64,000 bases of DNA from Botryllus schlosseri (lineage: Eukaryota). Position 1 is the stretch's first letter; the number at the start of each line of letters is the position of its first letter. The stretch is taken from the NCBI GenBank assembly GCA_051294905.1, contig CM119373.1, forward strand, positions 3,784,001 to 3,848,000, read 5' to 3'. Below the pieces are notes generated by a model. That model saw only the letters and a program-made list of their open reading frames with translations, made no database searches and was not told the DNA's origin. This document shows, one piece after another, positions 11,859-40,377 of the stretch. The position numbers and the translations under genes are program-made.

Positions 11859-14800
11859 TTATAGAATGAGGCTATACCGCTATACTTGCGTAGTTTGACA
11901 GTTCTACGTATGCATGAGCGATAAGCGCCTTCTTGCGTGTACATTGTACAATCAACTCTTGATTCGTTCTTCAATTCAGATTAAATGAGAACTCCATCTG
12001 TATTTAAAACAGTTAGCATGATGCAATGACTTTGAATCATGTCTCGTACTTTGAAAATTCAACTTGACTCGAATAGTGATTTGACTCGTGACTTGACTTG
12101 ACTTGACTCGACTTGACTCGAGTCATCTCCAAAAATCGGGTGACTTGACTTGACTCGAGTCACCTTTGAAAATCGAGTGACTTGACTTGACTCGAGTCAA
12201 AATCTGCAATGACTCGAGACTCGAAGGTAGTGCTGACTTGATCCCAACACTGTTGCGCAATGACAGGTGAGACTGGACCCGTCTGTGCCTCGTCTGTGCC
12301 TCCCTTCTCTATTAGCGCTTTAGTTCAGTGGTTCTTAACCCGGAGGTAAGTACCCAAAGGGGTAATTTGCCAATTTTTAGGGGGTGATTCAATATTGACG
12401 TTTTTTATATAGTTATAAAGGTGCACTGAAGTATTTTCAAACGTAAATATGAATGTAGGCTAACATATATTTTTGCGAAATTGAATATATTAGTAGTAGA
12501 GAAGTGGTGGATATAGCCGCATATCGTCTTTTAACTTAAAGAAACTAAAATCTCTAATAAAATAAAGAAACAAAGGATAACGGACTTACGCATTTTGCAG
12601 AATTGCAGTTCGTGACGGATTGCTGCAAGCGATCTGATTGATATGTGGCTGTTTGATTTCCGTTTGAAATGAGTTTGGTGTAATATTTGTGACGTAATTC
12701 TCGCGGTTGTGGCGTGACTCGTTATTTATGAGTGGATTGATCACTGGTTCTGCCTGTTGATTTCAAAACCCGGCTGACCTATCGTGTCGCGCTTTCTGGA
12801 ATTGAGTAAGGTTGCTATCTGCGTGTCAAAACTCGTTTGCGGTGAATATAATTTTATTATCAAGCAGTAATATCGAAGTTATCGTATTCTTTGCTGTAAT
12901 TTTCCACGTATGATCATCGAATCTTTCTGGATCTCTATGGTGTGTACTCCGACGAAACGGAAAAGTTCTCCCGGTACGGCTGCTATCTGCGTATAATCAA
13001 AACTCGTTTATGTTAAATTAAACTCGTTTGAATTTATTATCAGGCGAATATACTCAAGGTTACTGTATTATTTGCTGTAATTTTCCGCGTATGACGATCG
13101 AATCTTTTTGGATCTCTGTAGTGTGTAACCCGACGAAACGGAAAAGCTCGCCTGGCGTGACTCGCCGTGTCAGCGTGTAATGGCGGGTTGATTGATTGAT
13201 GGGTATATGATGACAATTTATGCTATGTTTCAAGCGTACGGTCAAGGTCACACGAATCGATGTAAAGTCTCGCTTGGTTGGATTCTCGTACTTGGATGGG
13301 GTGGGGGGTGGCTGACTAAGGGGCTACACATCCAAAACTACTTCCGTAACCCAATGTCAGTCAGGCGCAGAGACGAGCGGATATAAAAATTTGGTATTCT
13401 GAAACCATCTTGCTCCGGCTTATATTTTAAAACTCAACTGGCGTATGATTTCTCTTGAATCTCTCAATCAATAATTCCCGGTTCAATCGAGTGTGAATGC
13501 AAGCTGTCTGTGTGGTGCACGCGTTATCAAATCAAACTCGTTTGTGTCATTGAGTCCATGGTAGGCCTATATCACATTGATATCATTGTAAGCAGACAGT
13601 TTTGAGTAACTATGTGGGATTCTATTGAAAACAGCTTTATTACAAAGAAGCCGAGATAAGTCCATCGCTGTTGCTACTTGCTACCCGCCATTTTCAAGTG
13701 GTTTTTGACGACGTCCAAAGCTACTTCCCGCAGCTTACGACAGTAGAGAGCGAGTGTGCCAGGAGCGAGCCTCGTATACGGTACAAACGAGTGTGGATTT
13801 GAATGGGAAAACAAGGCATTGGGGGATCTTTACTGGATTACTTTTGGATTTAAGTTTATTCGGACCCGGATTTGTGGATTTTACATGCTACTCGCGAAAT
13901 AATATCGCGGGCAAGTGATCCCCATGAATCAGCCGTGATCGATCGGGGGTGATGCGATGATGTCAGTCTGGATTCAAAATACTCGTTTGGATTAATCACA
14001 TCAAAGTAATCAGTTTTCTTCTGGCTCGTGACTCTTGCATCGATGTGGTTCCTGTATTGAGAACTATACGATACTCGATTCCATTGTACGCTGACGTATC
14101 GGAAAAGTTCGCCTCGTTTCGTAGGATACTGGTGGAAAGGCTTAATCTCGCTGAATACGAGTTTGGGAATATTTGGCGTTATATTCGAGTGATAAAAAAC
14201 TTATCTCTAGGCAAGTAGACGTACTTGCTGAGTGATTGTAGCCTGCGACCCAAATTCCCATTGTCTCTGTCCACAATCGCTTGTGAAGTGGTGTAATGAA
14301 TCGGTGATCCGAATCCAGCCCGGAATTGCTCCTGCTCCTGGACCCGATCGTAATCACCTCCGCTCAGATGTGATCAACCTGTTGACGGATATACAGTCTT
14401 GTCGTCATCGTTGTATGTTAAGTTGACGGAATAATACTTGATCATAATGAGCAATCTGTAAGATATACATCTCAGTAGTACCGTGTTTTCTGTTTCACGG
14501 TCATACAAATCGGGTGCAGTTCAGATTAGCAAGAAATCGAGCAGTTTCATTTTCCTGGTACTGAGTTGAGACGCAATAACTACTGGTCAGGCGTAATCAT
14601 CTTCCATCTACAAAGGATGTTTCATTTTGGTATGGCTGCATATCAATTGTGTATATAAACTTGTATTTCGGCAGTCGATGAAGAAAATATGTAACCCGTT
14701 TGCTAAATATGTATGTTGTCTATTTTAGGAACACGAGAAGTGAAGTATATCAACAGTTTGATGTCAAAGAAAATATTATCCATGACGAAGCGTGAATAAT

Positions 14801-15479
14801 GATTTTACCCGCTGCGTGTCGAAATAGCGTATAGCGTATAGCGTATAATAGCGTCGATTCCGCAGCTGCAACACCAATGGGTTGCGGGTTCGAGTCCGAC
14901 TGAGTTCGACTGCAGAATTCTTACCCAAGTGTTGGATGTTTATCTAGGCTCCTATTTTTCATATAATCCGTACAAGCGATGCCTTCTAGAAGCTCAGAAG
15001 TGGCCAGTGCTACAAGTCGGTATCTACAGGACACAAATGACGTAAATCGTCCTGGTTGAAATGACCGTATTAGCAGTCTACAAGCACCATGAATATCACA
15101 AACAACGAAACAAACTCTACCCGCCATGATATCGACTCCAGCAGGACATATTTTCGATATATTGAGATATGTAAATTTCATTCTTAATATTTTCAATCTT
15201 GCAAGCGAACCATCTTTTAGGGCGGCAATAATACAAGATTTGTCGTTATCGGCTAACGCTGTCAAGGGCGATTTGGTGTATGGAAATGTGAATATTGATT
15301 ACGACGGTGCGATTTTGGACGGTTCGCCGCGGTAAACGATCCTTGATATCAGGAAACAATCAGGCGCAGTCTGAAAATATAGTCGAACATTCGTACCCTG
15401 CTACAATACCAAGCACAAAGCGTTATTGGAAAAAAAAATGCGATGAAGCGGCGATCGATATGCATCGTACAAAGACGTA

Positions 15480-15790
15480 GTAGTAGTCACGCACAAACAC
15501 ACACACTAACACACATACTAGAATACTAGTCAGATTATAGGACCACGAACTAACATATCGATCCAGTTTTCCGTCCCATACCACCTCATTTTGTCTCTTT
15601 CCTTTCATATTCTCTGCTTTAGTTTTCATTCGGTGTGCATTCCTCTTCTTTACTTTACCTATGCCAAGGTGGGTGTGCGATTTCAAAGACTACTCCAAGC
15701 TCCAATTCGTTTCGACACCTTCCTGTCTTTCATTGTATCGCAGTTTTGTAGTGTTTTGAAACGATGAAAATATTAATAAACTAACACTGA
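15480..15790 (+). mobile_element. CR1/L2-type LINE 3' fragment inside left arm (mirror copy about 23010-23320 on minus strand)
   Basis: CATTCGGTGTGCATTCC...GCCAAGGTGGGTG...AGACTACTCC...TTCGACACCTTCCTGTC...TAATAAAC, as at 51950-52170. Confidence 0.65.
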
Positions 15791-15939
15791 TACACTAAAT
15801 TATCCCAAGAACAGCTGCAATACAGAAACGTTTGAGGTCTATATATTTGCGATTTTTTATTGCGTGTGAAGATTTAAAAACGACTAGTAGAATAGGTAGG
15901 AGAAGACTGGAGGAGCAAGCTCTAGCACATAATAGACAT

Positions 15940-16250
15940 TTCGTCCATCAGTATTGGTGTTTGTAAGGCAGGACTAGAATCTGTGTAAAATGAGGAAAAT
16001 TACTATAATATGAATGCGAGGCATTCAATAGCACCCAAGCAGAGTTCTGAAAAACGGGAGTTGAACTGGATTGGATCCGAAAATGAACAATGCGCAGTGA
16101 GCACAATGACTCGGACTCGAGTCTCAACACCGTGATTCGGAGTTGAATATTCGAATCCTGAGTTGGACTCGGTGGTGAATGGAAAATGATTCGACTTGAC
16201 TCGAGTCCTACCGAATGTTGGGATTAAGTCACCATCCTCGAGTCACGAGT
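15940..16250 (-). mobile_element. Fragment of GACTCGAGTC-family hAT MITE inside left arm (mirror copy about 22550-22860)
   Basis: Similar to the internal sequence of elements at 774-1060, 43467-43800 and 51125-51330. Confidence 0.55.
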
Positions 16251-17962
16251 AGGGCTAGGCACAATGATTCGTGTACCCGAATCTGAAACGAGTAATATAT
16301 ATAACGATTCTAGTCGAGTAGTAAAAGACGATTTTTTTTCGAGTACTGAAAATATACGCTTCTATCGCCACTAAACGGCAATTTATCAACGAAAGTCATA
16401 GGTTCGATACTAGTTTCAAGTGTGGAAGCTGTAAAACTTTGATTGGTCGTATCGCAGCATACGAAACCTACAGACTACAGTACAATGCTACGAAAGTTAC
16501 TGAAAATAACAAATCGCTGGTATGCCAGCTAGTTTTATGGCTCTACAGCATCACCAGATTTTTATGACTCTATATGGCGGGTGTTTTCAACCCGGATCCA
16601 ATCATCTGGATAGTAAGTAGCCTATACACAAGTAAGTAACTCCGTCGGTCGGAAGAAGTAGGCGTATCACGCGATATACTTTTTCGTATCATAGATAATG
16701 ATATCATGCAAATTCTGCACGAGATGAGTCTTGGAAGTGGCACGTAAAACGTTGTTGTCCCCCACCAATATAGCTTCTCTAGATGAGATGTCTGATTCGT
16801 TTTGAAATATCTGCCCCGTTTGTGGAAATCTTCAGCGACTATTATTGTTCTGGGGATCATTTTCGTTGAGTATTAAAATATGGTCTCTCGCAGAGCGTGA
16901 CGGTCAACAAATGTATGTCTCAAATATTCAGCGGAAACCGGGGGGTACATTATTGTTCGAGACTCCTATATATGACTTGGAATAAAGCACCGATGCCTTG
17001 TCATTCAGAGGCTGCTGTATCGAGAGCGTCCATGGCAGTTGATCGAATAATCATGTGAGAAGATGGTCAAATATGATTGTCTACCTATCTATTATGAATA
17101 TTCTATTTCGGAGTGTTTCCTTGTATATCCCCGAGAGTGACGACATAGAGTCGACTATTACTGATCTCGCGATGTGAGAATACAACTCGTGAAAAGAAGC
17201 TTGTGATCTGTGATGGATTACAGAATATTCCGATGTCAACGCTGACGTTCTTGAAAATGGTGTGATTCGTTATAGTTCTGATCTTGTGTGACTACCCCAA
17301 ACAGTAGATTATCGACTATAAAACGTTTGTGTAGCTATAATTCGTATCCAAGTTGTTGAACTAAGACATATGACGGTAGAATCGAATGTCATACATAAAA
17401 ACTTATTCAAATACCTACTAAGAGTGAACATTACAACGTTGAGTCACTTGAAAAGTTGTCGTGGTAGCGGAATATTGTTTGTGAATCGATATGGTTAGTA
17501 ACAGTTGCATTGTTCGCACATTTAATGCTATTTATCGATATCGGATCGGCTTATCAGTGTGAGAACCAAGTGCGTGCCAACTGCCCTTTGTCAATGGAAA
17601 TAAACACCTGTCTCCCGTATTGCTGTCAGAAAACAATCTGTTTTCATGAAATACGTATATTTGCACGCCAAGTCCTGCTAATTTTGTTGCCCGTTCGTTT
17701 TTGTATTAACATTAAGTGTGTAGTATCGCTCCTTTGGCGATGGTAATTTGGCGGAAAAAGTCAGCACCTAAGATTAAAAAAATCAACCAGAGAACGAGCT
17801 GTTTCTCCGCGACCTTTCAATATTCACCTATGGTTTTGAATTCACAGCAAATAACATTATTGTTGACAATATGTGAATTGCTATCGAAGATTCGTAGTAA
17901 TGGTTTTGTCTGTTTTTAGGATGATATATTTCTCGAACAGTTTCCCAAAATGAGAGACTGTT

Positions 17963-19290
17963 ATGGAAAGACACTTCGACCCGGATCCGCCCGTACAGAG
18001 ATGCGTATATATCGCGTCGGGTTCTCACCGCTCCGAATTATATAGACTCGCTACGTTCGCCAGGTTTTCGAGACTGTCGTACGCAAAGCGTGCAGATTTA
18101 GCATCTGACGGATATTATTGGCTAGGGTTCGAAGACAAAATTAAATGTTTCGGATGCAGTATTTCACTCGAAAAATGGGTTGAAAAGGATACGAATGTAA
18201 GTTGTCATGAAGCGAGTTGTGTTCGAGACGTATTCAATATTCCCGTTGAAAGATCGAATTTCAGGAGTCTATTACGGGAGTTTAAGCTCCAAATCGAGAC
18301 ACCGCAAGTCAATAACAGCGACATAAAACTTGCGAATATCATTGACCGAGAACACGCGTGTTTGATTAAGAACCTCGACTTGAAAAGGGAATCGAAGCGA
18401 CGCGAAACCTTCAAGAAATAGCCTAGCTATCCAATACCCCACGCAGTAGGCGAGTTGGTGAAACAAGGGTTTTTCTATCTCGGTAACTTAGACAGAACGC
18501 AGTGCTTTAGCTGCTTCGGTGTTCTTCGCAATTGGAAACCCATAGACGACGTATCGGAAATACACCTTACACATTTTCCAAAATGTACTTTCGCACGTGG
18601 TAGCTTTTCAGGAAATATCGCACTAGCTGAGCAAGACCGCGGTAATTTGGATGACTTACTTCACGAGAAAATACGACGGCTCACTATCAATATGAAAGAA
18701 CCAGATGAGCCATCCGAGGATGAAAAACACTATCTTGCTGAACTATTCCCTTGCCTTAACCCCGCGAATCCTGTAATGTCGTCCTTGTCACGAAGAATAG
18801 CAACCTTCGACGAAGGTTGGGATCCCGCTAAAATCAATGCTAGCGTTGAGCAATTAGCAAATGCGGGGTTTTATTACATCGATTCGGACAAGACGAAATG
18901 TTTTTACTGCAATGGTGGACTTCGGTGGGACCGGACAGACGAGGTTTGGACGGAACATGCTAAATGGTTTCCGCAATGCGAGTACGTACTTCGTATGAAA
19001 GGTATCGAATTCGGGCGACGCATCGAAAACACATATCCAAATCTCAACCGTCCGATTATTAGAAACCCCATCACGAAGTTGGAGTTGACTAAACGACAAA
19101 ATGTTCTGCGGAATCGTCAATCAAACGATGGATCACCGTTGGATTGCATCGAAAATGGGAGAGGCCGTGACGTGTAAACGATGTGAAATAAATATAAATG
19201 AATATGACTATAGCATGTGGACATCTTTGCATTGTTTCTAGACTTGTGGGACTGACGTAGAACGCAGTGGTGGCAGTCATGAAGTACTTC
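17963..19290 (+). pseudogene. IAP: Inhibitor of apoptosis (3 BIR domains plus frameshifted RING remnant), intronless, in-frame TAG at 18419-18421; copy 1
   Basis: ORFs 17963-18421 and 18455-19177 are one frame. BIR1 RLATF...KCFGC...HEASC; BIR2 RRETFKK*P...GFFYLGNLDRTQCFSC...HLTHFPKC; BIR3 RIATF..W...AGFYY...KCFYC...EHAKWFPQC. Downstream, CKRC (19173) and ACGHLC (about 19213) lie in shifted frames. Confidence 0.9.
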
Positions 19291-19503
19291 TATTTTTTTT
19301 TCTCAGAATTGTGGTAGGTTTTACCTAATTACACTACATACTCAAGTGCCTTGTGTTGGACTACTTCTATTTCTATCAGTTGGATTAGACGGGACATTCT
19401 AACTGGTTGTAAAACTGATAGAAATAGAAGTAGTCCAACACAAGGCACTTGAGTATGTAGTGTAATTAGGTAAAACCTACCACAATTCTGAGAAAAAAAA
19501 ATA

Positions 19504-20831
19504 GAAGTACTTCATGACTGCCACCACTGCGTTCTACGTCAGTCCCACAAGTCTAGAAACAATGCAAAGATGTCCACATGCTATAGTCATATTCATTTAT
19601 ATTTATTTCACATCGTTTACACGTCACGGCCTCTCCCATTTTCGATGCAATCCAACGGTGATCCATCGTTTGATTGACGATTCCGCAGAACATTTTGTCG
19701 TTTAGTCAACTCCAACTTCGTGATGGGGTTTCTAATAATCGGACGGTTGAGATTTGGATATGTGTTTTCGATGCGTCGCCCGAATTCGATACCTTTCATA
19801 CGAAGTACGTACTCGCATTGCGGAAACCATTTAGCATGTTCCGTCCAAACCTCGTCTGTCCGGTCCCACCGAAGTCCACCATTGCAGTAAAAACATTTCG
19901 TCTTGTCCGAATCGATGTAATAAAACCCCGCATTTGCTAATTGCTCAACGCTAGCATTGATTTTAGCGGGATCCCAACCTTCGTCGAAGGTTGCTATTCT
20001 TCGTGACAAGGACGACATTACAGGATTCGCGGGGTTAAGGCAAGGGAATAGTTCAGCAAGATAGTGTTTTTCATCCTCGGATGGCTCATCTGGTTCTTTC
20101 ATATTGATAGTGAGCCGTCGTATTTTCTCGTGAAGTAAGTCATCCAAATTACCGCGGTCTTGCTCAGCTAGTGCGATATTTCCTGAAAAGCTACCACGTG
20201 CGAAAGTACATTTTGGAAAATGTGTAAGGTGTATTTCCGATACGTCGTCTATGGGTTTCCAATTGCGAAGAACACCGAAGCAGCTAAAGCACTGCGTTCT
20301 GTCTAAGTTACCGAGATAGAAAAACCCTTGTTTCACCAACTCGCCTACTGCGTGGGGTATTGGATAGCTAGGCTATTTCTTGAAGGTTTCGCGTCGCTTC
20401 GATTCCCTTTTCAAGTCGAGGTTCTTAATCAAACACTCGTGTTCTCGGTCAATGATATTCGCAAGTTTTATGTCGCTGTTATTGACTTGCGGTGTCTCGA
20501 TTTGGAGCTTAAACTCCCGTAATAGACTCCTGAAATTCGATCTTTCAACGGGAATATTGAATACGTCTCGAACACAACTCGCTTCATGACAACTTACATT
20601 CGTATCCTTTTCAACCCATTTTTCGAGTGAAATACTGCATCCGAAACATTTAATTTTGTCTTCGAACCCTAGCCAATAATATCCGTCAGATGCTAAATCT
20701 GCACGCTTTGCGTACGACAGTCTCGAAAACCTGGCGAACGTAGCGAGTCTATATAATTCGGAGCGGTGAGAACCCGACGCGATATATACGCATCTCTGTA
20801 CTGGCGGATCCGGGTCGAAGTGTCTTTCCAT
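19504..20831 (-). pseudogene. IAP: Inhibitor of apoptosis (3 BIR plus RING remnant); mirror copy 2 with the same TAG
   Basis: ORFs 20373-20831 and 19617-20339(-) are identical to copy 1 except one A/E substitution (18357/20437) and one silent change. Confidence 0.9.
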
Positions 20832-23800
20832 AACAGTCTCTCATTTTGGGAAACTGTTTGAGAAATATATCATCCTAAAAACAGACAAAACCATTACTAC
20901 GAATCTTCGATAGCAATTCACATATTGTCAACAATAATGTCATTTGCTGTGAATTCAAAACCATAGGTGAATATTGAAAGGTCGCGGAGAAACAGCTCGT
21001 TCTCTGGTTGATTTTTTTAATCTTAGGTGCTGACTTTTTCCGCCAAATTACCATCGCCAAAGGAGCGATACTACACACTTAATGTTAATACAAAAACGAA
21101 CGGGCAACAAAATTAGCAGGACTTGGCGTGCAAATATACGTATTTCATGAAAACAGATTGTTTTCTGACAGCAATACGGGAGACAGGTGTTTATTTCCAT
21201 TGACAAAGGGCAGTTGGCACGCACTTGGTTCTCACACTGATATTTCATAAGCCGATCCGATATCGATAAATAGCATTAAATGTGCGAACAATGCAACTGT
21301 TACTAACCATATCGATTCACAAACAATATTCCGCTACCACGACAACTTTTCAAGTGACTCAACGTTGTAATGTTCACTCTTAGTAGGTATTTGAATAAGT
21401 TTTTATGTATGACATTCGATTCTACCGTCATATGTCTTAGTTCAACAACTTGGATACGAATTATAGCTACACAAACGTTTTATAGTCGATAATCTACTGT
21501 TTGGGGTAGTCACACAAGATCAGAACTATAACGAATCACACCATTTTCAAGAACGTCAGCGTTGACATCGGAATATTCTGTAATCCATCACAGATCACAA
21601 GCTTCTTTTCACGAGTTGTATTCTCACATCGCGAGATCAGTAATAGTCGACTCTATGTCGTCACTCTCGGGGATATACAAGGAAACACTCCGAAATAGAA
21701 TATTCATAATAGATAGGTAGACAATCATATTTGACCATCTTCTCACATGATTATTCGATCAACTGCCATGGACGCTCTCGATACAGCAGCCTCTGAATGA
21801 CAAGGCATCGGTGCTTTATTCCAAGTCATATATAGGAGTCTCGAACAATAATGTACCCCCCGGTTTCCGCTGAATATTTGAGACATACATTTGTTGACCG
21901 TCACGCTCTGCGAGAGACCATATTTTAATACTCAACGAAAATGATCCCCAGAACAATAATAGTCGCTGAAGATTTCCACAAACGGGGCAGATATTTCAAA
22001 ACGAATCAGACATCTCATCTAGAGAAGCTATATTGGTGGGGGACAACAACGTTTTACGTGCCACTTCCAAGACTCATCTCGTGCAGAATTTGCATGATAT
22101 CATTATCTATGATACGAAAAAGTATATCGCGTGATACGCCTACTTCTTCCGACCGACGGAGTTACTTACTTGTGTATAGGCTACTTACTATCCAGATGAT
22201 TGGATCCGGGTTGAAAACACCCGCCATATAGAGTCATAAAAATCTGGTGATGCTGTAGAGCCATAAAACTAGCTGGCATACCAGCGATTTGTTATTTTCA
22301 GTAACTTTCGTAGCATTGTACTGTAGTCTGTAGGTTTCGTATGCTGCGATACGACCAATCAAAGTTTTACAGCTTCCACACTTGAAACTAGTATCGAACC
22401 TATGACTTTCGTTGATAAATTGCCGTTTAGTGGCGATAGAAGCGTATATTTTCAGTACTCGAAAAAAAATCGTCTTTTACTACTCGACTAGAATCGTTAT
22501 ATATATTACTCGTTTCAGATTCGGGTACACGAATCATTGTGCCTAGCCCTACTCGTGACTCGAGGATGGTGACTTAATCCCAACATTCGGTAGGACTCGA
22601 GTCAAGTCGAATCATTTTCCATTCACCACCGAGTCCAACTCAGGATTCGAATATTCAACTCCGAATCACGGTGTTGAGACTCGAGTCCGAGTCATTGTGC
22701 TCACTGCGCATTGTTCATTTTCGGATCCAATCCAGTTCAACTCCCGTTTTTCAGAACTCTGCTTGGGTGCTATTGAATGCCTCGCATTCATATTATAGTA
22801 ATTTTCCTCATTTTACACAGATTCTAGTCCTGCCTTACAAACACCAATACTGATGGACGAAATGTCTATTATGTGCTAGAGCTTGCTCCTCCAGTCTTCT
22901 CCTACCTATTCTACTAGTCGTTTTTAAATCTTCACACGCAATAAAAAATCGCAAATATATAGACCTCAAACGTTTCTGTATTGCAGCTGTTCTTGGGATA
23001 ATTTAGTGTATCAGTGTTAGTTTATTAATATTTTCATCGTTTCAAAACACTACAAAACTGCGATACAATGAAAGACAGGAAGGTGTCGAAACGAATTGGA
23101 GCTTGGAGTAGTCTTTGAAATCGCACACCCACCTTGGCATAGGTAAAGTAAAGAAGAGGAATGCACACCGAATGAAAACTAAAGCAGAGAATATGAAAGG
23201 AAAGAGACAAAATGAGGTGGTATGGGACGGAAAACTGGATCGATATGTTAGTTCGTGGTCCTATAATCTGACTAGTATTCTAGTATGTGTGTTAGTGTGT
23301 GTGTTTGTGCGTGACTACTACTACGTCTTTGTACGATGCATATCGATCGCCGCTTCATCGCATTTTTTTTCCAATAACGCTTTGTGCTTGGTATTGTAGC
23401 AGGGTACGAATGTTCGACTATATTTTCAGACTGCGCCTGATTGTTTCCTGATATCAAGGATCGTTTACCGCGGCGAACCGTCCAAAATCGCACCGTCGTA
23501 ATCAATATTCACATTTCCATACACCAAATCGCCCTTGACAGCGTTAGCCGATAACGACAAATCTTGTATTATTGCCGCCCTAAAAGATGGTTCGCTTGCA
23601 AGATTGAAAATATTAAGAATGAAATTTACATATCTCAATATATCGAAAATATGTCCTGCTGGAGTCGATATCATGGCGGGTAGAGTTTGTTTCGTTGTTT
23701 GTGATATTCATGGTGCTTGTAGACTGCTAATACGGTCATTTCAACCAGGACGATTTACGTCATTTGTGTCCTGTAGATACCGACTTGTAGCACTGGCCAC

Positions 23801-26654
23801 TTCTGAGCTTCTAGAAGGCATCGCTTGTACGGATTATATGAAAAATAGGAGCCTAGATAAACATCCAACACTTGGGTAAGAATTCTGCAGTCGAACTCAG
23901 TCGGACTCGAACCCGCAACCCATTGGTGTTGCAGCTGCGGAATCGACGCTATTATACGCTATACGCTATACGCTATTTCGACACGCAGCGGGTAAAATCA
24001 TTATTCACGCTTCGTCATGGATAATATTTTCTTTGACATCAAACTGTTGATATACTTCACTTCTCGTGTTCCTAAAATAGACAACATACATATTTAGCAA
24101 ACGGGTTACATATTTTCTTCATCGACTGCCGAAATACAAGTTTATATACACAATTGATATGCAGCCATACCAAAATGAAACATCCTTTGTAGATGGAAGA
24201 TGATTACGCCTGACCAGTAGTTATTGCGTCTCAACTCAGTACCAGGAAAATGAAACTGCTCGATTTCTTGCTAATCTGAACTGCACCCGATTTGTATGAC
24301 CGTGAAACAGAAAACACGGTACTACTGAGATGTATATCTTACAGATTGCTCATTATGATCAAGTATTATTCCGTCAACTTAACATACAACGATGACGACA
24401 AGACTGTATATCCGTCAACAGGTTGATCACATCTGAGCGGAGGTGATTACGATCGGGTCCAGGAGCAGGAGCAATTCCGGGCTGGATTCGGATCACCGAT
24501 TCATTACACCACTTCACAAGCGATTGTGGACAGAGACAATGGGAATTTGGGTCGCAGGCTACAATCACTCAGCAAGTACGTCTACTTGCCTAGAGATAAG
24601 TTTTTTATCACTCGAATATAACGCCAAATATTCCCAAACTCGTATTCAGCGAGATTAAGCCTTTCCACCAGTATCCTACGAAACGAGGCGAACTTTTCCG
24701 ATACGTCAGCGTACAATGGAATCGAGTATCGTATAGTTCTCAATACAGGAACCACATCGATGCAAGAGTCACGAGCCAGAAGAAAACTGATTACTTTGAT
24801 GTGATTAATCCAAACGAGTATTTTGAATCCAGACTGACATCATCGCATCACCCCCGATCGATCACGGCTGATTCATGGGGATCACTTGCCCGCGATATTA
24901 TTTCGCGAGTAGCATGTAAAATCCACAAATCCGGGTCCGAATAAACTTAAATCCAAAAGTAATCCAGTAAAGATCCCCCAATGCCTTGTTTTCCCATTCA
25001 AATCCACACTCGTTTGTACCGTATACGAGGCTCGCTCCTGGCACACTCGCTCTCTACTGTCGTAAGCTGCGGGAAGTAGCTTTGGACGTCGTCAAAAACC
25101 ACTTGAAAATGGCGGGTAGCAAGTAGCAACAGCGATGGACTTATCTCGGCTTCTTTGTAATAAAGCTGTTTTCAATAGAATCCCACATAGTTACTCAAAA
25201 CTGTCTGCTTACAATGATATCAATGTGATATAGGCCTACCATGGACTCAATGACACAAACGAGTTTGATTTGATAACGCGTGCACCACACAGACAGCTTG
25301 CATTCACACTCGATTGAACCGGGAATTATTGATTGAGAGATTCAAGAGAAATCATACGCCAGTTGAGTTTTAAAATATAAGCCGGAGCAAGATGGTTTCA
25401 GAATACCAAATTTTTATATCCGCTCGTCTCTGCGCCTGACTGACATTGGGTTACGGAAGTAGTTTTGGATGTGTAGCCCCTTAGTCAGCCACCCCCCACC
25501 CCATCCAAGTACGAGAATCCAACCAAGCGAGACTTTACATCGATTCGTGTGACCTTGACCGTACGCTTGAAACATAGCATAAATTGTCATCATATACCCA
25601 TCAATCAATCAACCCGCCATTACACGCTGACACGGCGAGTCACGCCAGGCGAGCTTTTCCGTTTCGTCGGGTTACACACTACAGAGATCCAAAAAGATTC
25701 GATCGTCATACGCGGAAAATTACAGCAAATAATACAGTAACCTTGAGTATATTCGCCTGATAATAAATTCAAACGAGTTTAATTTAACATAAACGAGTTT
25801 TGATTATACGCAGATAGCAGCCGTACCGGGAGAACTTTTCCGTTTCGTCGGAGTACACACCATAGAGATCCAGAAAGATTCGATGATCATACGTGGAAAA
25901 TTACAGCAAAGAATACGATAACTTCGATATTACTGCTTGATAATAAAATTATATTCACCGCAAACGAGTTTTGACACGCAGATAGCAACCTTACTCAATT
26001 CCAGAAAGCGCGACACGATAGGTCAGCCGGGTTTTGAAATCAACAGGCAGAACCAGTGATCAATCCACTCATAAATAACGAGTCACGCCACAACCGCGAG
26101 AATTACGTCACAAATATTACACCAAACTCATTTCAAACGGAAATCAAACAGCCACATATCAATCAGATCGCTTGCAGCAATCCGTCACGAACTGCAATTC
26201 TGCAAAATGCGTAAGTCCGTTATCCTTTGTTTCTTTATTTTATTAGAGATTTTAGTTTCTTTAAGTTAAAAGACGATATGCGGCTATATCCACCACTTCT
26301 CTACTACTTATATTTCGTTTCACTTAAAACACACCATCCCTACTGTGATATCGGTAACCTATAGTGATTATGAATAGCAGAGCCTAATGTAGTTTAGTAT
26401 AGTGCTAGGCAAGTCCCATTTATTTTGCAGTACTGCGGATCATATATTGTTGCGCATGCTGGCAAATTGAAAGACAACAAGGGGCGTCTAAGTTTGGCTT
26501 TAGACCTATAGTGCAGTGAAAATAGAGTAGAAATCTAGTTGTTAGTATTGAAACGTGTAGTGGTATAGTGCTAGTCTTTAAAACTAAGCCTGAAATCATT
26601 AAAAGGCCGTGTAGGTTCGCGTTCAAAATGAATAACCAATCTTCGTCATGGAGC

Positions 26655-30036: not shown

Positions 30037-33000
30037 GGCATATGTTGGTGCTGCGACTGACGTTGTTGTGAATATAACGACTGTTCTTATTGTGAACATG
30101 ACTGTTCTTATTGTGAACATGACTGTTATTATTGTGAACATGAGACTGTTCCTATTGTGAAAACAATTGCTCTTATTGCTAAGATGAGACTATTCCTATT
30201 GTGAACATGACTGCTCTTATTGTGAAAATGAGACTGTTCTTATTGTGAACATGGGACTGTTCTTATTGTGAACATGACTGCTCTTATTGTGAACATGAGA
30301 CTGTTCTTATTGTGAACATGAGACTGTTCTTATTGTGAACATGACTGCTCTTATTGTGAACATGAGACTGTTCTTATTGTGAACATAACTGCTCTTATTG
30401 TGAACATGAGACTGTTCTTATTGTGAACATGAGACTGTTCCTATTGTGAACATGACTGCTCTTATTGTGAACATGAGACTGTTCTTATTGTGAACATGAC
30501 TGTTATTATTGTGAACATGAGACTGTTCCTATTGTGAACGCAATTGCTCTTATTGTGAAGATGAGACTGTTCTTATTGTGAACATGAGACTGTTCTTATT
30601 GTGAACATGCCTGCTCTTATTGTGAACATGAGACTGTTCTTATTGTGAACATGAGACTGTTCTTATTGTGAACATGACTGCTCTTATTGTGAACATGAGA
30701 CTGTTCTTATTGTGAACATAACTGCTCTTATTGTGAACATGAGACTGTTCTTATTGTGAACATGAGACTGTTCCTATTGTGAACATGACTGCTCTTATTG
30801 TGAAAATGAGACTGTTCTTATTGTGAACATGAGACTGTTCTTATTGTGAACATGACTGCTCTTATTGTGAACATGAGACTGTTCTTATTGTGAACATGAG
30901 ACTGTTCTTATTGTGAACATGACTGCTCTTATTGTGAACATGAGACTGCTCTTATTGTAAACATGAGACTGTTCTTATTGTGAACATGAGACTGTTCCTA
31001 TTGTGAACATGACTGCTCTTATTGTGAACATGAGACTGTTCTTATTGTGAACATGAGACTGTTCTTATTGTGAACATGAGACTGTTCTTATTGTGAACAT
31101 GAGACTGTTCTTATTGTGAACATGACTGCTCTTATTGTGAACATGAGACTGTTCTTATTGTGAACATGACTGCTCTTATTGTGAACATGAGACTGTTCTT
31201 ATTGTGAACATGACTGCTCTTATTGTGAACATGAGACTGTTCTTTTTGTGAACATGACTGCTCTTATTGTGAACATGAGACTGTTCTTATTGTGAACATG
31301 AGACTGTTCTTATTGTGAACATGACTGTTCTGATTGTGAACATGAGACTGTTCTTATCGTGAACATGACTGCTCTTATTGTGAACATGAGACTGTTCTTA
31401 TTGTGAACATGAGACTGTTCCTATTGTGAACATGACTGCTCTTATTGTGAACATGAGACTGTTCTTATTGTGAACATGAGACTGTTCTTATTGTGAACAT
31501 GAGACTGTTCATATTGTGAACATGAGACTGTTCTTATTGTGAACATGACTGCTCTTATTGTGAACATGAGACTGTTCTTATTGTGAACATGACTGCTCTT
31601 ATTGTGAACATGAGACTGTTCTTATTGTGAACATGAGACTGTTCTTATTGTGAACATGACTGTTCTGATTGTGAACATGAGACTGTTCTTATCGTGAACA
31701 TGACTGCTCTTATTGTGAACATGAGACTGTTCTTATTGTGAACATGAGACTGTTCCTATTGTGAACATGACTGCTCTTATTGTGAACATGAGACTGTTCT
31801 TATTGTGAACATGAGACTGTTCTTATTGTGAACATGAGACTGTTCTTATTGTGAACATGAGACTGTTCCTATTGTGAACATGACTGCTCTTATTGTGAAC
31901 ATGAGACTGTTCTTATTGTGAACATGGCTGTTCTTATTGTGAACACGAGACTGATCCTATTTTAAACATGGCAGACCCTATTGTGAATTGGCGACCCAGT
32001 CCGACCATACCTCAGACATCGTGTCTGGGGTATCTTCGGACTGCATTGACACTCGAACATCATGTCTGGAGTGTTCGGATATCATGACTGAGGTGTCTCC
32101 GCACTGCGTTGCCAATCGGAAATCATGTTCGGACATCATGCCCCGGCCTGTGTTCCAACATCAAGACTGGGGTGTGTTCATAAAATCATGTTTGGGGTGT
32201 CTCCGGACTGCAAACACACTATGGCATCACGTCTGCGGCGTGGCGAGTGCGAACATCGTGTCTAGAGGGTGTTCGGACTGCGTTTGGCACTTAGACATCA
32301 TGTCTGGGGTGTGTTCGGACTGTGTTGTCAATCGGAAATCGTGTTCGGTCATCATGTTAGGAGTGTGTTCGGACTGCGTTGACACTCGGACATCATGTCT
32401 GGAGGGGGGGGGGGGTGTTCGGACATCATGTCTGGGGTGTGTCTGGGGGTGTTCAGACATCATGTCTGGGGGGTGTCTGGGGGGTGTTCGGTCATCATGT
32501 CAGGGGTGTGTTAGGACTGCGTTGACACTCGGATATCGTGTCTGGGGGTGTTTGGACATCATGTCTGGGTGTGTTAGGACTGCGTTGACACTCGGACATC
32601 TTGTCTGGGGGTGTTCGGACATCATGTCAGGAGTGTGTTCGGACTGCGTTGACACTCGGACATCTTGTCTGGGGGTGTTCGGTCATCATGTCAGGGGTGT
32701 GTTAGGACTGCGTTGACACTCGGATATCGTGTCTGGGGGTGTTTGGACATCATGTCTGGGGTGTGTTAGGACTGCGTTGACACTCGGACATCGTGTCTGG
32801 GGGTGTTCGGACATCATGTCTGGGTTGGGTTCGGACTATATTGCCACTCGGACATCGTGTCCGGGAGATATCTTGGTGCTGCGACTGATGTTATTGTGAA
32901 TACAACGACTGTTCTTATTGTATACATGAGACTGCTCTTATTGTGAACATGACTATTCTTATTGTGAACATGAGACTGTTCTTATTGTATACATCAGATT

Positions 33001-33177
33001 GTTCTTATTGTGAACATGACTGTTCATATTGTGAACATGAGACCGTTCTTATTGTATACATTAGACTGTTCTTATTGTGAACATGAGACTGTTCTTATTG
33101 TGAACATGACTGTTCATATTGTGAACATGACTGTTCATATTGTGAACATGAGACCGTTCTTATTGTATACATTAGAC

Positions 33178-35594: not shown

Positions 35595-38500
35595 ATTAGA
35601 CTGTTCTTATTGTGAACATGAGACTGTTCTTATTGTGAACATGACTGTTCTTATTGTGAACATGACTGTTCATATTGTGAACATGAGACCGTTCTTATTG
35701 TATACATTAGACTGTTCTTATTGTGAGCATGAGAATGTTCTTATTGTGAACATGACTGTTCTTATTATGAACATGAGACTGTTCTTATTGTGAACATGAC
35801 TGTTATTATTGTGAACATGAGACTGTTCTTATTGTGAACATGACTGTTCTTATTGTGAACATGACTGTTCATATTGTGAACATGAGACCGTTCTTATTGT
35901 ATACATTAGACTGTTCTTATTGTGAGCATGAGAATGTTCTTATTGTGAACATGACTGTTCTTATTATGAACATGAGACTGTTCTTATTGTGAACATGACT
36001 GTTATTATTGTGAACATGAGACTGTTCCTATTGTGAACATGACTGCTCTTATTGTGAACATGAGACTGTTCTTATTGTGAACATGACTGTTCTTATTGTG
36101 AACATGACTGTTCATATTGTGAACATGAGACCGTTCTTATTGTATACATTAGACTGTTCTTATTGTGAGCATGAGAATGTTCTTATTGTGAACATGACTG
36201 TTCTTATTATGAACATGAGACTGTTCTTATTGTGAACATGACTGTTATTATTGTGAACATGAGACTGTTCTTATTGTGAACATGACTGTTCTTATTGTGA
36301 ACATGACTGTTCATATTGTGAACATGAGACCGTTCTTATTGTATACATTAGACTGTTCTTATTGTGAGCATGAGAATGTTCTTATTGTGAACATGACTGT
36401 TCTTATTATGAACATGAGACTGTTCTTATTGTGAACATGACTGTTATTATTGTGAACATGAGACTGTTCCTATTGTGAACATGACTGCTCTTATTGTGAA
36501 CATGAGACTGTTCTTATTGTGAACATGACTGTTATTATTGTGAACATGAGACTGTTCCTATTGTGAATACAATTGCTCTTTTTGTGAAGATAAGACTATT
36601 CCTATTGTGAACATGACTGCTCTTATTGTGAAAATGAGACTGTTCTTATTGTGAACATGAGACTGTTCTTATTGTGAACATGACTGCTCTTATTGTGAAC
36701 ATGAGACTGTTCTTATTGTGAACATGAGACTGTTCTTATTGTGAACATGACTGCTCTTATTGTGAACATGAGACTGTTCTTATTGTGAACATAACTGCTC
36801 TTATTGTGAACATGAGACTGTTCTTATTGTGAACATGAGACTGTTCCTATTGTGAACATGACTGCTCTTATTGTGAACATGAGACTGTTCTTATTGTGAA
36901 CATGAGACTGTTCTTATTGTGAACATGAGACTGTTCTTATTGTGAACATGACTGCTCTTATTGTGAACATGAGACTGTTTTTATTGTGAACATAACTGCT
37001 CTTATTGTGAACATGAGACCGTTCTTATTGTGAACATGAGACTGTTCCTATTGTGAACATGACTGCTCTTATTGTGAACATGAGACTGTTCTTATTGTGA
37101 ACATGGCTGTTCTTATTGTGAACACGAGACTGATCCTATTTTAAACATGGCAGACCCTGTTGTGAATTGGCGACCCAGTCCGACCATACCTCAGACATCG
37201 TGTCTGGGGTATCTTCGGACTGCATTGACACTCGAACATCATGTCTGGAGTGTTCGGATATCATGACTGAGGTGTCTCCGCACTGCGTTGCCAATCGGAA
37301 ATCATGTTCGGACATCATGCCCCGGCCTGTGTTCCAACATCAAGTCTGGGGTGTGTTCATAAAATCATGTTTGGGGTGTCTCCGGACTGCAAAGACACTA
37401 TGGCATCATGTCTGCGGCGTGGCGAGTGCGAACATCGTGTCTAGAGGGTGTTCGGACTGCGTTTGGCACTTAGACATCATGTCTGGGGTGTGTTCGGACT
37501 GTGTTGTCAATCGGAAATCGTGTTCGGTCATCATGTTAGGAGTGTGTTCGGACTGCGTTGACACTCGGACATCATGTCTGGAGGGGGGGGGGGGGTGTTC
37601 GGACATCATGTCTGGGGTGTGTCTGGGGGTGTTCAGACATCATGTCTGGGGGGTGTCTGGGGGGTGTTCGGTCATCATGTCAGGGGTGTGTTAGGACTGC
37701 GTTGACACTCGGATATCGTGTCTGGGGGTGTTTGGACATCATGTCTGGGTGTGTTAGGACTGCGTTGACACTCGGACATCTTGTCTGGGGGTGTTCGGAC
37801 ATCATGTCAGGAGTGTGTGTTCGGACTGCGTTGACACTCGGACATCGTGTATGGGGGGTGTTCGAACATCATGTCTGGGGGGTGTTCGGACATCATGTCT
37901 GGGGTGTGTTAGGACTGCGTTGACACTCGGACATCGTGTCTGGGGGTGTTCGGACATCATGTCTGGGTTGTGTTCGGACTATATTGCCACTCGGACATCG
38001 TGTCCGGGGGATATCTTGGTGCTGCGACTGATGTTATTGTGAATACAACGACTGTTCTTATTGTATACATGAGACTGCTCTTATTGTGAACATGACTATT
38101 CTTATTGTGAACATGAGACTGTTCTTATTGCATACATCAGATTGTTCTTATTGTGAACATGACTGTTCCTATTGTGAACATGAGACCGTTCTTATTGTAT
38201 ACATTAGACTGTTCTTATTGTGAACATGAGACTGTTCTTATTGTGAACATGACTGTTCATATTGTGAACATGAGACCGTTCTTATTGTATACATTAGACT
38301 GTTCTTTGTGTGAGCATGAGAATGTTCTTATTGTGAACATGACTGTTCTTATTGTGAACATGAGACTGTTCTTATTGTTAACATGACTGTTCATATTGTG
38401 AACATGAGACCGTTCTTATTGTATACATTAGACTGTTCTTATTGTGAACATGAGACTGTTCTTATTGTGAACATGACTGTTCATATTGTGAACATGAGAC

Positions 38501-40377
38501 CGTTCTTATTGTATACATTAGACTGTTCTTATTGTGAACATGAGACTGTTCTTATTGTGAACATGACTGTTCATATTGTGAACATGACTGTTCATATTGT
38601 GAACATGAGACCGTTCTTATTGTATACATTAGACTGTTCTTATTGTCAGCATGAGAATGTTCTTATTGTGAACATGACTGTTCTTATTGTGAACATGAGA
38701 CTGTTCTTATTGTATACATCAGACTGTTCGTATTGTGAACATGAGACTGTTCTTATTGTGAACATGGGACTGTTCTTATTGTATACATCAGACTGTTCTC
38801 ATTGTGAACATGACTGTTCTTATTGTGAACATGAGACCGTTCTTATTGTGAACATGAGACTGTTCTTATTGTGAACAAGATTGTTCTTATTGTGAACATG
38901 AGACTGTTCTTATTGTATACATCAGACCGTTTTTATTGTGAACATGACTGTTCCTATTGTGAACATGAGACTGTTCTTATTGTGAACATGAGACTGCTCT
39001 TATTGTATACATCAGACTGCTCTTATTGTGAACATGACTGTTCTTATTGTGAATATGAAACTGTTCTTATTGTGAACATGAGTGTTCTTATTGTGAACAT
39101 GAGACTGTTCTTATTGTGAACATGAGTGTTCTTATTGTGAACATGAGACCTATCTTATTGTGAACATGACTGTTCTTATTGTGAACATGAGACTGTTCTT
39201 ATTGGGAACAAGATTGTTCTTATTGTGAACATAATCGAACCAACCCTGTAGATTTTTCCTAATGAATTAAAAATTTCAATTGAAGATTGCACGGCCTTTA
39301 CTGGTTGGTATTGAGTCAAATTTGGTGTGCATCGTTTTCTTAGACAACCTATGCGTTTTGTATTTCAGCCCAAAAGTCCGGTAATGAAAAGTCTTCGTTC
39401 CGATGGCTGCGTCAAGAAATACGAACGCCACTCGCCAACATGATGAAGGTACTTCCGTAAGACTTTAATGGCTTTGTTTACGGAGAACCAGACTTGGAAA
39501 ACTAGATAATTAGACTAATCAAAGCGAAATGTCGGTAATCTGTATGTGCACACTGTACAGTAGGGCTGTTCAAAAAGAAACTTTTCTATTACATTTCACT
39601 GGCTACTTGATAAAATTGTTAGGTTGGTTAAAAAATAAACGCTGCACACCAACTTTGGCTACATTCCAATTCCAACCAGTAGAAGTGAGAAGCTTGCAGT
39701 AGAAAGTTCTGAATTTATCATAAAAAATAAAATTTCCAAATTTTTTTGTCAACCCCATAAAATTGTTAGGCTGTCAGTAGAGATGATGCACACCAAATGT
39801 GACTCCATTCCAACCACTCGAAGCGAAGTTATTGCTATAGAAAAATTAGGATTTGAGTAAAATAGTATTTACGGTGACTAACTCTTTAATTACTTATTAT
39901 AAAATCATGGAATTAGAAATTTTTCAACACCTTCGTTTATGGAGTGAACAATTAACCTGACTGTATGTGTGTACAGGAAATGAACAGACTTCCAGACGAT
40001 CTGCTGTCGACGGCATCGACAAGTCTCGAAACGTCTTGGTACAAAACCTCATTCGAGGAGATGATGAGATATCGGGACGTCCCTGTCAGCAATGACATTA
40101 CCGAAAAGTAATCCATTTTGTTTGTTGGGTTCTTGATAGTTTCATTCGAAATGCCGCAAGATTACGATACAGTGGGAGGAAGGAATAAAAATGTACTCTT
40201 ACATACCCACGTTGGCCTAGAACATGTGACTAAGAGGCAATCACACTAGAGTTGCTCACAAATATTTTGTTTTCAAATTTCGCTTGCTACTTCATGAAAT
40301 TGTGAGGATGTCTAAAAAACAATACATAAAAAATGTCGCAAATTTGGGCTTTCAAAAAAAAACAGGAACTACAGTGT

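Follow-up and report, generated by a model that had tools for sequence, protein, structure and literature searches.

Our analysis of a 64,000-nt stretch of the Botryllus schlosseri genome (contig CM119373.1, positions 3,784,001 to 3,848,000; hereafter the window) reveals a 13.8-kb palindrome composed of two reverse-complement arms, which are 99.83% identical over 6897 alignment columns and differ by four substitutions and two indels, of 1 nt and 7 nt (Table 1). The symmetry extends from AGTAGTAG at position 12492 to CTACTACT at position 26308, and the alignment of the arms reproduces exactly the two ~6.9-kb arms, the 31-bp spacer, and the TATATT hexamers outside both ends described in the initial annotation. 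Each arm comprises a terminus of ~0.5 kb of the type found in autonomous Polintons of the same genome (hereafter helpers), ~5 kb of non-coding sequence with nested repeats, and an IAP gene facing the 31-nt loop. Reverse-complement arms around a short turn-around loop are also a feature of copy-back or snap-back defective genomes. A 635-nt segment of the left arm (14312–14946) was considered as a nested insertion and rejected; since it has neither a terminal inverted repeat (TIR) nor a target-site duplication (TSD), and since a dispersed repeat straddles its edge, a deletion is the better explanation for its absence from one clade.

Table 1. Features of the palindromic element, in window coordinates
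Feature	Position	Strand	Remarks
Left TSD copy, TATATT	12486..12491		Flank matches overlap by 6 bp in 12 paralogous empty sites
Left arm	12492..19381	+	6890 nt; aligns collinearly with arms of 8 further copies
Left terminal region common to autonomous Polintons	12492..12974	+	Begins AGTAGTAG; 373–484-nt alignments to C12 TIRs
Left-arm IAP gene	17963..19177	+	Three BIR, no RING; reads towards centre; TAG at 18419–18421 (codon 156)
Frame-shifted remnant resembling start of IAP RING	about 19175–19260		Three-frame translation
AATAAA	19187..19192	+	10 nt downstream of IAP stop; read from sequence
Spacer (loop at symmetry centre)	19382..19412		31 nt, asymmetric; same junction in 7 loci including the window copy
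Right arm	19413..26308	-	6896 nt; reverse complement of left arm
Right-arm IAP gene, mirror copy	19617..20831	-	Matching in-frame TAG at 20373–20375 (codon 156)
Right terminal region, mirror of 12492–12974	25826..26308	-	Ends CTACTACT
Right TSD copy, TATATT	26309..26314		Pairs with left TATATT

The TATATT hexamer is a true TSD. Specifically, 12 uninterrupted paralogous copies of the host repeat match both flanks, and in each of them the left-flank match overlaps the right-flank match by exactly 6 bp, giving the empty sites with a single hexamer that the initial annotation had called for; the window copy is a recent insertion into this dispersed repeat. A 6-bp TSD is present in all ten elements checked (the window copy and nine others), with seven perfect as printed, two having one mismatch, and one being perfect if a further ACT unit is counted at its right end. 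The ends, previously described as Polinton/Maverick-type, are indeed of this type: the element starts with the (AGT)2 motif, has 5'-AG...CT-3' termini, and matches the left and right TIRs of an autonomous element, C12, with 99.2% identity (373 nt) and 96.9% identity (484 nt), respectively. Vertebrate Mavericks have the end motif 5'-(AGT)2 ... (ACT)2-3' and a 6-bp TSD (PMC8097293). The terminal region has at least 40 genomic occurrences, most of them in inverted pairs; among these are, as had been predicted, loci with different TSDs and loci in which the terminus runs into Polinton core genes. No IMG/VR contig matches the terminus. As in a derivative of a specific autonomous family, the termini are near-identical to those of autonomous elements, and copies are present at at least 21 sites. 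Positions 12492–12974 are the functional TIR proper, which would serve as replication origin and integrase substrate, and the shared termini and TSD length suggest mobilisation in trans by helper proteins.

Foldback elements are typified by very long inverted arms, and the palindrome resembles Drosophila Foldback and Galileo in having such arms with little or no middle. Foldback and Galileo, however, have tandem-repeat arms and TSDs of about 7–9 bp, whereas Tandem Repeats Finder detects no tandem arrays in positions 12400–19450, the TSD is 6 bp in every element checked, and the termini are 97–99% identical over 373–484 nt to TIRs of elements bearing pPolB and integrase. We therefore consider it extremely improbable that the element belongs to a different superfamily of foldback-type transposons (FB/MULE-like or P/Galileo-like) and has Polinton-like ends by chance.

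The helpers that bear the same termini as the palindromes include the C12, C7, and C1 elements (16.4–17.7 kb). In particular, C12 codes for an rve integrase that passes the Pfam cut-off (E 1.7e-10), a 222-aa P-loop protein, and a 1323-aa ORF with exonuclease and polymerase A/B/C motifs that can be read by eye. The 1323-aa ORF has no match in Pfam or PDB sequence searches; in a language-model neighbour search, its nearest Atlas clusters are 95–100% PF03175 (score 0.96), and these neighbours, with the motifs read by eye, point to a putative protein-primed polymerase, pPolB. The clusters nearest to a 462-aa helper ORF carry a double-jelly-roll domain, a weak lead to a probable capsid gene among the autonomous elements with these termini. 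The autonomous Polintons with matching TIRs code for pPolB (as assigned above), rve integrase, ATPase, and a probable capsid protein. A second Polinton helper family in the genome has a palindromic IAP satellite of its own.

The arm lacks this gene content. Among its 48 stop-to-stop frames of at least 55 aa, two match Pfam, both to BIR, and tblastn with 13 helper ORFs yields a single match below E 0.1, a small ORF inside the shared terminus. These searches detect no pPolB, rve integrase, ATPase, or capsid gene in the arms, and tblastn detects no remnant of the 13 helper ORFs in the arm outside the shared terminus. The polymerase and rve integrase that mark an autonomous Polinton are thus absent from the arm but encoded by the helpers that share its termini, in agreement with the initial description of an element without core genes and with an IAP in each arm. 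That description had also taken the arm to have been copied from one end of a helper genome; this part does not hold, as helper similarity is limited to the first ~0.5–1 kb, and the deeper arm is unlike the helper at the DNA or protein level.

At least 21 loci in the 495-Mb genome contain inverted pairs of inner-arm sequence, and seven of these, including the window copy, share the exact centre junction with 94–100% identity. Eight of the nine other terminus pairs compared are near-complete palindromes, with arms of 5.2–7.2 kb that are 99.75–99.96% identical; the detailed dissection left out the complex 18–39-kb copies C14, C15, C10:3.27M, and C7:29.9M. The palindromes are 12.1–15.3 kb long, versus 16.4–17.7 kb for the helpers. 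The window element is therefore not a one-off, contrary to the single copy-back accident originally proposed, and we conclude with high confidence that it belongs to a family of palindromic, non-autonomous Polintons. Copy-back of a helper-genome end as a single event shortly before the window insertion would account for the palindromic structure and the helper-type ends, but is very improbable given the 21 palindromic loci, the identical centre junction in seven, and the dissimilarity of arm and helper past ~1 kb.

The multiplicity of loci also bears on assembly. Missed-adapter reads can yield palindromes; a fold-back chimera of long reads is nevertheless hardly credible here, because both flanks are unique and carry the TSD, paralogues confirm the empty site, the arms differ at six places, and at least 21 loci have distinct flanks and distinct centre lesions. 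In addition, a short-read contig of another run spans positions 19171–19426; it starts in the arm, passes through the spacer, and ends just 14 nt beyond it in the other arm. In three DNA-type runs, Logan contigs match the arm in pieces of 175–1416 nt, and no RNA run is among the listed holders of the sequence; among the matches listed for the three runs, none crosses 12491/12492, either insertion junction, or the whole centre.

The IAP is the sole frame that is open across diverged copies; each of 11 other ORFs of at least 80 aa is broken in at least one of six copies. The two Pfam BIR matches (E 7.9e-11 and 1e-36, the second over two stretches) correspond to three BIR domains, within the one to three that define IAP (BIRC) proteins. 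The ORF ends before the C-terminal RING E3 domain and does not encode a RING-bearing IAP; its relatives are 574–707 aa long with PF13920, and a RING is present in all but one of the 10 best database relatives. We take the AATAAA downstream of the stop codon to be a polyadenylation-type signal, and the frame-shifted remnant resembles the start of an IAP RING. The palindrome IAP is nearest to ascidian host IAPs, with identity of at most 45%. An IMG/VR search with the IAP returned distant IAPs only (27–32% identity, on 110–133-kb contigs), which have no bearing on the element. In all ten pairwise comparisons among five lineages, dN/dS is 0.11–0.43, indicating that the IAP is under purifying selection. 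The statement that the IAP is the one recognisable gene of the element stands insofar as it is the only Pfam-matching gene; in the window copy the gene is broken in both arms by the TAG at codon 156. In one run of raw RNA reads (~6% sampled), 194 reads were recovered, 193 of them only partly on the stretch, with a depth of ~1–2 over the IAP, too low to establish expression.

Comparison of the copies indicates that the two arms of a copy evolve in concert and that post-insertion events are asymmetric. In particular, in each of the nine copies compared, the left arm is sister to the right arm, and seven copies contain 36 between-arm substitutions in 45,720 aligned nt, versus up to 20% divergence among copies. 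Lineage-specific kb-scale deletions and replacements, terminus swaps, and disabling IAP mutations are symmetric in both arms, whereas both nested TE insertions examined are in one arm only, and the centre-adjacent deletions in C2, C16, and C7 are one-sided. From symmetric lineage-specific changes together with one-sided later insertions, we infer that one arm is re-copied from the other in a replication-linked manner, and we lean, with moderate confidence, towards such homogenisation rather than homogenisation in situ.

Homogenisation in situ would make the element a non-autonomous Polinton with giant TIRs, in which gene conversion within the chromosome equalises the arms, as it does in palindromes of sex chromosomes, and replication has no special role. 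Gene conversion is known for closely spaced inverted repeats and keeps large palindromes homogeneous; the arm identity of 99.87–99.99% at the substitution level in seven of seven copies is in keeping with it, as is the clustering of arm differences in one inner segment, like conversion tracts, in the window copy and C7b. Both nested TE insertions and the one-sided centre deletions in three copies, however, stayed unconverted, although large heterologies might resist conversion and unconverted insertions or deletions could thus persist. Furthermore, wherever a lineage has a kb-scale replacement or a swap of the outermost 480 nt, both arms have it, and the first 745 nt are free of substitutions in all seven arm pairs; conversion of the extreme terminus needs homology outside the element, and none exists. 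We regard gene conversion as an unlikely explanation.

The assumption for Polintons and Mavericks is that they replicate through protein priming with strand displacement and that they form virions; to our knowledge, protein-primed replication and virion formation of Polintons have hardly been observed in animals. We propose that the palindromes probably constitute a satellite Polinton family, in which a near-complete palindrome is heritable, is re-copied by snap-back, and has its IAP kept by selection. Specifically, the helper protein-primed DNA polymerase would copy a family member as a linear molecule, the nascent strand would snap back just beyond the symmetry centre and copy its own first arm, and the helper rve integrase would insert the copy, creating the 6-bp duplication. 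Through snap-back copying, most replication cycles would rebuild the second arm on the template of the first, and, as a consequence, the loop would be kept and lineage-specific changes would be symmetric. Selection on the element would retain the IAP, the likely benefit of which would be to block apoptosis in cells where helper and satellite replicate; any such benefit is void for the window copy, because the IAP is non-functional in both its arms. Mobilisation in trans, snap-back homogenisation, and this role of the IAP are what we infer from the genomic patterns.

Symmetric or snap-back defective genomes are known from adenovirus incomplete particles, Ad12 'SYREC', and hairpin or palindromic derivatives of yeast killer linear plasmids. 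Such defective genomes of protein-primed replicons are helper-dependent, have the same terminus twice and a palindromic body, and are dead-end products in culture. The palindromes resemble them in having identical ends and a palindromic body, and their sizes of 12.1–15.3 kb would fit a packaging-length constraint like that of adenovirus. Unlike culture-born defective genomes, they form a lineage that is integrated in the germline, long-lived, and diversified, and that has a gene of its own under selection.

The end motif and the 6-bp TSD of the palindromes match those of vertebrate Mavericks, and the termini are shared with autonomous elements of this genome, but the 'TIR' of 5.2–7.2 kb is nearly the whole palindrome, contains no core genes, and belongs to arms that evolve in concert; TIRs of Polintons and Mavericks are reported as 46–1,447 bp (PMC8097293) and 100–1,500 bp (PMC10748475). 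Butterfly Polintons (bioRxiv 10.1101/2025.02.07.637071) have TIRs of ~2 kb that contain genes, and derivatives lacking polB have remained active. Both systems include derivatives that spread without a polymerase, and both have two gene copies per insertion because the genes sit inside inverted repeats; the TIR genes of butterfly Polintons are core virion genes (hexon, adenain), with a unique middle holding the remaining genome, whereas the palindromes duplicate a host-type IAP and are almost without a unique middle. The initial annotation had placed the novelty in complete palindromy plus IAP cargo; IAP homologues are, however, already reported as accessory genes of adintoviruses (PMC8502044). 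The palindromes are like adintoviruses and viral IAPs in that a BIR-domain IAP homologue is present on a Polinton-class element; the palindrome IAP differs in being the only gene of a satellite, in being present twofold, in lacking the RING that all but one of its 10 best database relatives have, and in being closest to ascidian host IAPs. In the full-text literature searched (Repbase and subscription journals lying outside its scope), there is no report of a fully palindromic Polinton derivative.

A more far-reaching and tentative possibility, to which we assign less weight than to the satellite family as such, is that the palindromes are satellite viruses of endogenous adintovirus-like Polintons. 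If so, the heritable unit would be one arm plus the loop, ~7 kb, propagated through obligate snap-back; the ~14-kb dimer would fit the length requirement of the helper capsid; the RING-less IAP would preserve the co-infected cell; at least two helper lineages would each have gained a satellite, adding dozens of host IAP genes; and the pattern would be the first genomic read-out of Polinton replication in animals. For the satellite family, symmetric rebuilding versus one-sided post-insertion change would constitute a natural record of a replication step, and the two helper families would exemplify a helper–satellite relationship within an animal genome, twice over. The palindromes also represent a host-type anti-apoptotic gene maintained by selection on a mobile element, and a route for expansion of the IAP gene family, in which each of at least 21 insertions brings two genes.

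The window element consists of two arms that are reverse complements at 99.83% identity (inverted-repeat search and direct alignment), separated by a short spacer, bearing out the initial annotation of a palindrome of two about 6.9-kb arms around 31 bp. The arms differ by four substitutions and two indels (1 nt and 7 nt). The symmetry runs from first bases AGTAGTAG to last bases CTACTACT, and TATATT, as annotated, directly adjoins both ends. Both flanks are parts of one dispersed repeat. In a search of the genome (495.5 Mb, 219 contigs; the window is C3:3784001-3848000), the left-flank and right-flank matches overlap by exactly 6 bp in 12 uninterrupted paralogous copies of this repeat, indicating that the element is an insertion bordered by 12492 and 26308 that generated a 6-bp target-site duplication (TSD).

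All four arm-arm substitutions are confined to 505 nt (17853-18357), and other sequencing runs agree with the right arm at 17853 and at the 7-nt indel; these differences look like a short patch acquired from a different copy or a local failure of homogenisation. Immediately left of the insertion lies a very high-copy repeat, with a summed contig depth about 200 times that of the window element in one sequencing run (X2). The window also contains large tandem arrays, which represent a higher-order duplication because their arrangement recurs at ~5.5 kb.

Coordinates of the features described (bare coordinates are window positions; C, contigs; L, fetched genome pieces)
Feature	Coordinates	Length	Description
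Left arm	12492-19381	6890 nt
Spacer (loop)	19382-19412	31 nt
Right arm	19413-26308	6896 nt
Left-arm IAP gene	17963-19177	404 codons	three BIR domains; BIR frames joined
High-copy repeat	12000-12248		abundant GACTCG motifs
Tandem arrays	30066-31970, 32883-33177, 35598-37149, 38026-39233; also 32473-32865, 37653-38010		22-23-nt units, alternating with GC-rich ~64-nt units
C12 autonomous element	C12:15841851-15858285	~16.4 kb	termini shared with window element
C12 open frame	L027:8052-8546	164 codons	runs into terminal repeat
C10 centre	C10:5956074-5956360		tandem triplication of ~154 nt containing loop
C16 nested TE	C16:15781245-15781829	~585 nt	left arm only; 8-bp duplication
C4 nested TE	C4:10598713-10600817	2105 nt	right arm only; ends read CAGTGGTTCTCAACC
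Second palindromic IAP element	C11:11037944-11053243 (L030:4945 to L031:1243)	15.3 kb	ends start AGTAGTATATAAATGG; TSD AATATT
Further copies of second IAP	C3:14860333-14868909, C5:24756287, C3:35914582		one inverted pair 7.4 kb apart

The termini of the window element are shared with an autonomous Polinton on contig C12 (one of the elements hereafter called helpers), matching its left end over 373 nt at 99.2% and its right end over 484 nt at 96.9%; beyond the termini, the two elements have almost nothing in common. The (AGT)2-type end motif and 6-bp TSD are as described for Mavericks (PMC8097293). The C12 element encodes an rve integrase (Pfam, E 1.7e-10; 41.5 bits, cut-off 32.6) and a 222-aa P-loop protein with sub-threshold ATPase matches only. 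A 1323-aa frame has no Pfam match and no PDB sequence match; PF03175 is present in 95-100% of the proteins in the Atlas clusters nearest to it, which match with a very high score, and its translation contains what we take to be exonuclease and family B polymerase A, B, and C motifs. The nearest clusters of a 462-aa frame carry a double-jelly-roll domain, with recognition under the tool's guide value, and its assignment as a putative double-jelly-roll-type protein is only a lead. Close copies of the C12 polymerase lie between terminus pairs at C7:27.27M (94% identical, one stop), C1:29.05M (four stops, first 250 residues absent), and C7:29.93M (partial). The annotated Polinton/Maverick-type ends are thus upheld, and the same terminus leads into core genes elsewhere. 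The open frame that runs into the C12 terminal repeat draws its first 78 residues from the outermost 234 nt, common to the satellite (the palindromic element lacking core genes). An integrase search of the genome gave 115 matches, most of which have open frames; they represent three or more Polinton families, with identity classes of about 100/97%, 73%, and 43%. The Polinton load of this genome is thus unusually heavy, and its elements are seemingly young.

The window element belongs to a dispersed palindromic family. Its first 609 nt have at least 55 matches in the genome (best 40 of 83 candidates scored), and most of the matches listed form plus/minus pairs 12-39 kb apart, so that the terminus does recur at other loci, as the initial annotation had proposed to check. 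Eight of nine fetched pairs prove to be palindromic almost throughout, their arms being 5.2-7.2 kb long and 99.75-99.96% identical; the ninth, C12, has inverted repeats of only 377 nt. A 6-bp duplication adjoins AGTAGT...ACTACT in all ten elements (window plus nine fetched): it is perfect as printed in seven, is perfect at C12 if the right end has one extra ACT unit, and has one mismatch each in C8 and C4 (copies are named by contig). The inner 2.5 kb of the arm matches at least 21 loci with inverted pairs (best 40 of 186 candidates scored). At seven of them, including the window, the plus-strand match stops exactly where the minus-strand match starts (arm up to 19412, then returning from 19381; 94-100% identical), and this shared exact centre register indicates that a palindrome with this loop is ancestral and moved as a palindrome. 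The centre is altered by one-sided deletions beside it in C2, C16, and C7, by foreign sequence of 490 nt in C8, and by a triplication in C10. The initial reading of the element as a Polinton-derived snap-back product was right about the class of element, but the one-off origin that it assumed is contradicted by these recurrent inverted pairs and centre junctions.

BIR is the only Pfam match in the arm (two of 48 stop-to-stop frames of at least 55 aa), and a tblastn search of the arm with 13 helper ORFs matched solely a small ORF inside the shared terminus, confirming the reported lack of polymerase, integrase, ATPase, and capsid. The BIR frames form an IAP gene with AATAAA 10 nt past its stop. 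IAP stands as the one recognisable gene, but both window copies are broken at codon 156, where each has an in-frame TAG. Open frames are retained by C7b (another copy on C7) and C10 in both arms, by C5, and by C2 and C7 in whichever arm is complete; C8 (TGA plus a 2-nt insertion) and C16 (TAA) each have the same disabling lesions in their two arms. IAP dN/dS is 0.11-0.43 in ten of ten pairs, which are not independent (five lineages, dS up to 0.107). None of the 11 other arm ORFs of at least 80 aa is intact in all six copies compared, and the IAP region is the best-conserved part of the arm (in C10, for example, it is 97.4% identical and other parts 82-90%). Its closest database relatives are ascidian IAPs of 574-707 aa, which share no more than 45% identity with it and nearly all have a RING. 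The element gene ends before RING, followed by a frame-shifted remnant alone, indicating that an IAP of host type was captured in the distant past and has persisted as a BIR-only protein. Three BIR-plus-RING proteins listed under Endozoicomonas, ascidian symbiont bacteria (P0013, P0112, P0115), are 31-39% identical to the element IAP and could reflect host-to-symbiont gene transfer or contamination. IAP and Bcl2 homologues are already known in adintoviruses (PMC8502044).

The two arms of each copy evolve in concert. In particular, a 1.5-kb segment common to the copies gives a tree in which left and right arms are sisters in nine of nine copies (support 97-100, or arms identical). Across seven copies, 36 arm-arm substitutions are present in 45,720 aligned nt (0.014-0.134% per copy), with none in the first 745 nt, while divergence between copies reaches 20%. 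All examined lineage-specific changes are symmetric between arms: one clade lacks 14312-14946 and has different sequence in place of 15831-16851, in both arms, and the IAP-disabling mutations and the termini follow the same pattern. At its ends the window element is 99.6% identical to C8, although their inner arms agree at only 92-94%; by inner arm it is closest to C2, C16, and C7b, whose ends are 94%, 92%, and 81% identical to its own. Termini have therefore been exchanged, each exchange reaching both ends. The main rival explanation is that the arms were homogenised by gene conversion in situ. Changes that can only have followed element insertion are one-sided: nested TE insertions are confined to one arm in both cases examined (C16 and C4), and centre-adjacent deletions are likewise one-sided. 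Kilobase-scale symmetry in lineages, set against these later events, indicates that arm-to-arm copying of differences of this size acts in the mobile lineage and has not acted on resident copies. The C4 nested TE has the same end type as the repeat flanking the window element.

Protein-primed replication with snap-back is, we infer, the simplest account of the arm symmetry. Specifically, a linear, protein-primed satellite molecule would be replicated by the helper polymerase; once the fork has moved just beyond the centre, the newly made strand would pair with its own first arm and copy it, keeping the loop and rebuilding the second arm, including the terminus, from the first; and the product would be made duplex and then inserted by the helper integrase. 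Adenovirus and yeast linear plasmids provide precedents both for the repair of inverted termini by pairing within a strand and for palindromic defective genomes. Satellites of simple structure are 12.1-15.3 kb long, and helpers 16.4-17.7 kb; speculatively, these sizes would be compatible with the doubling of a 7-kb unit to reach a length required for packaging.

Inverted pairs at other places in the genome carry a second IAP (76% DNA identity). The palindrome on C11 has arms of ~7.0 kb at 99.84-100% identity, a centre of 1.3 kb, and two open, outward-facing, 382-codon RING-less IAP genes. Its first 241 nt match terminus pairs at C4:12.42M, C8:26.35M, C15:22.39M, and C3:18.97M, which enclose genes of a different autonomous Polinton family, namely its polymerase (63% identical) and its integrase. 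Further copies of this IAP are probably members of the second satellite family, since one is an inverted pair.

Reported Polinton TIRs span 46-1,447 bp (PMC8097293) or 100-1,500 bp (PMC10748475), and a preprint on butterflies describes TIRs of ~2 kb that contain genes, as well as derivatives that lack polB yet are active (bioRxiv 10.1101/2025.02.07.637071). No fully palindromic Polinton derivative was found in the full-text papers searched. The element is a new structural variant of an already known class of element; the window copy is a dead member of its family, and the family carries an unusually informative evolutionary signature.
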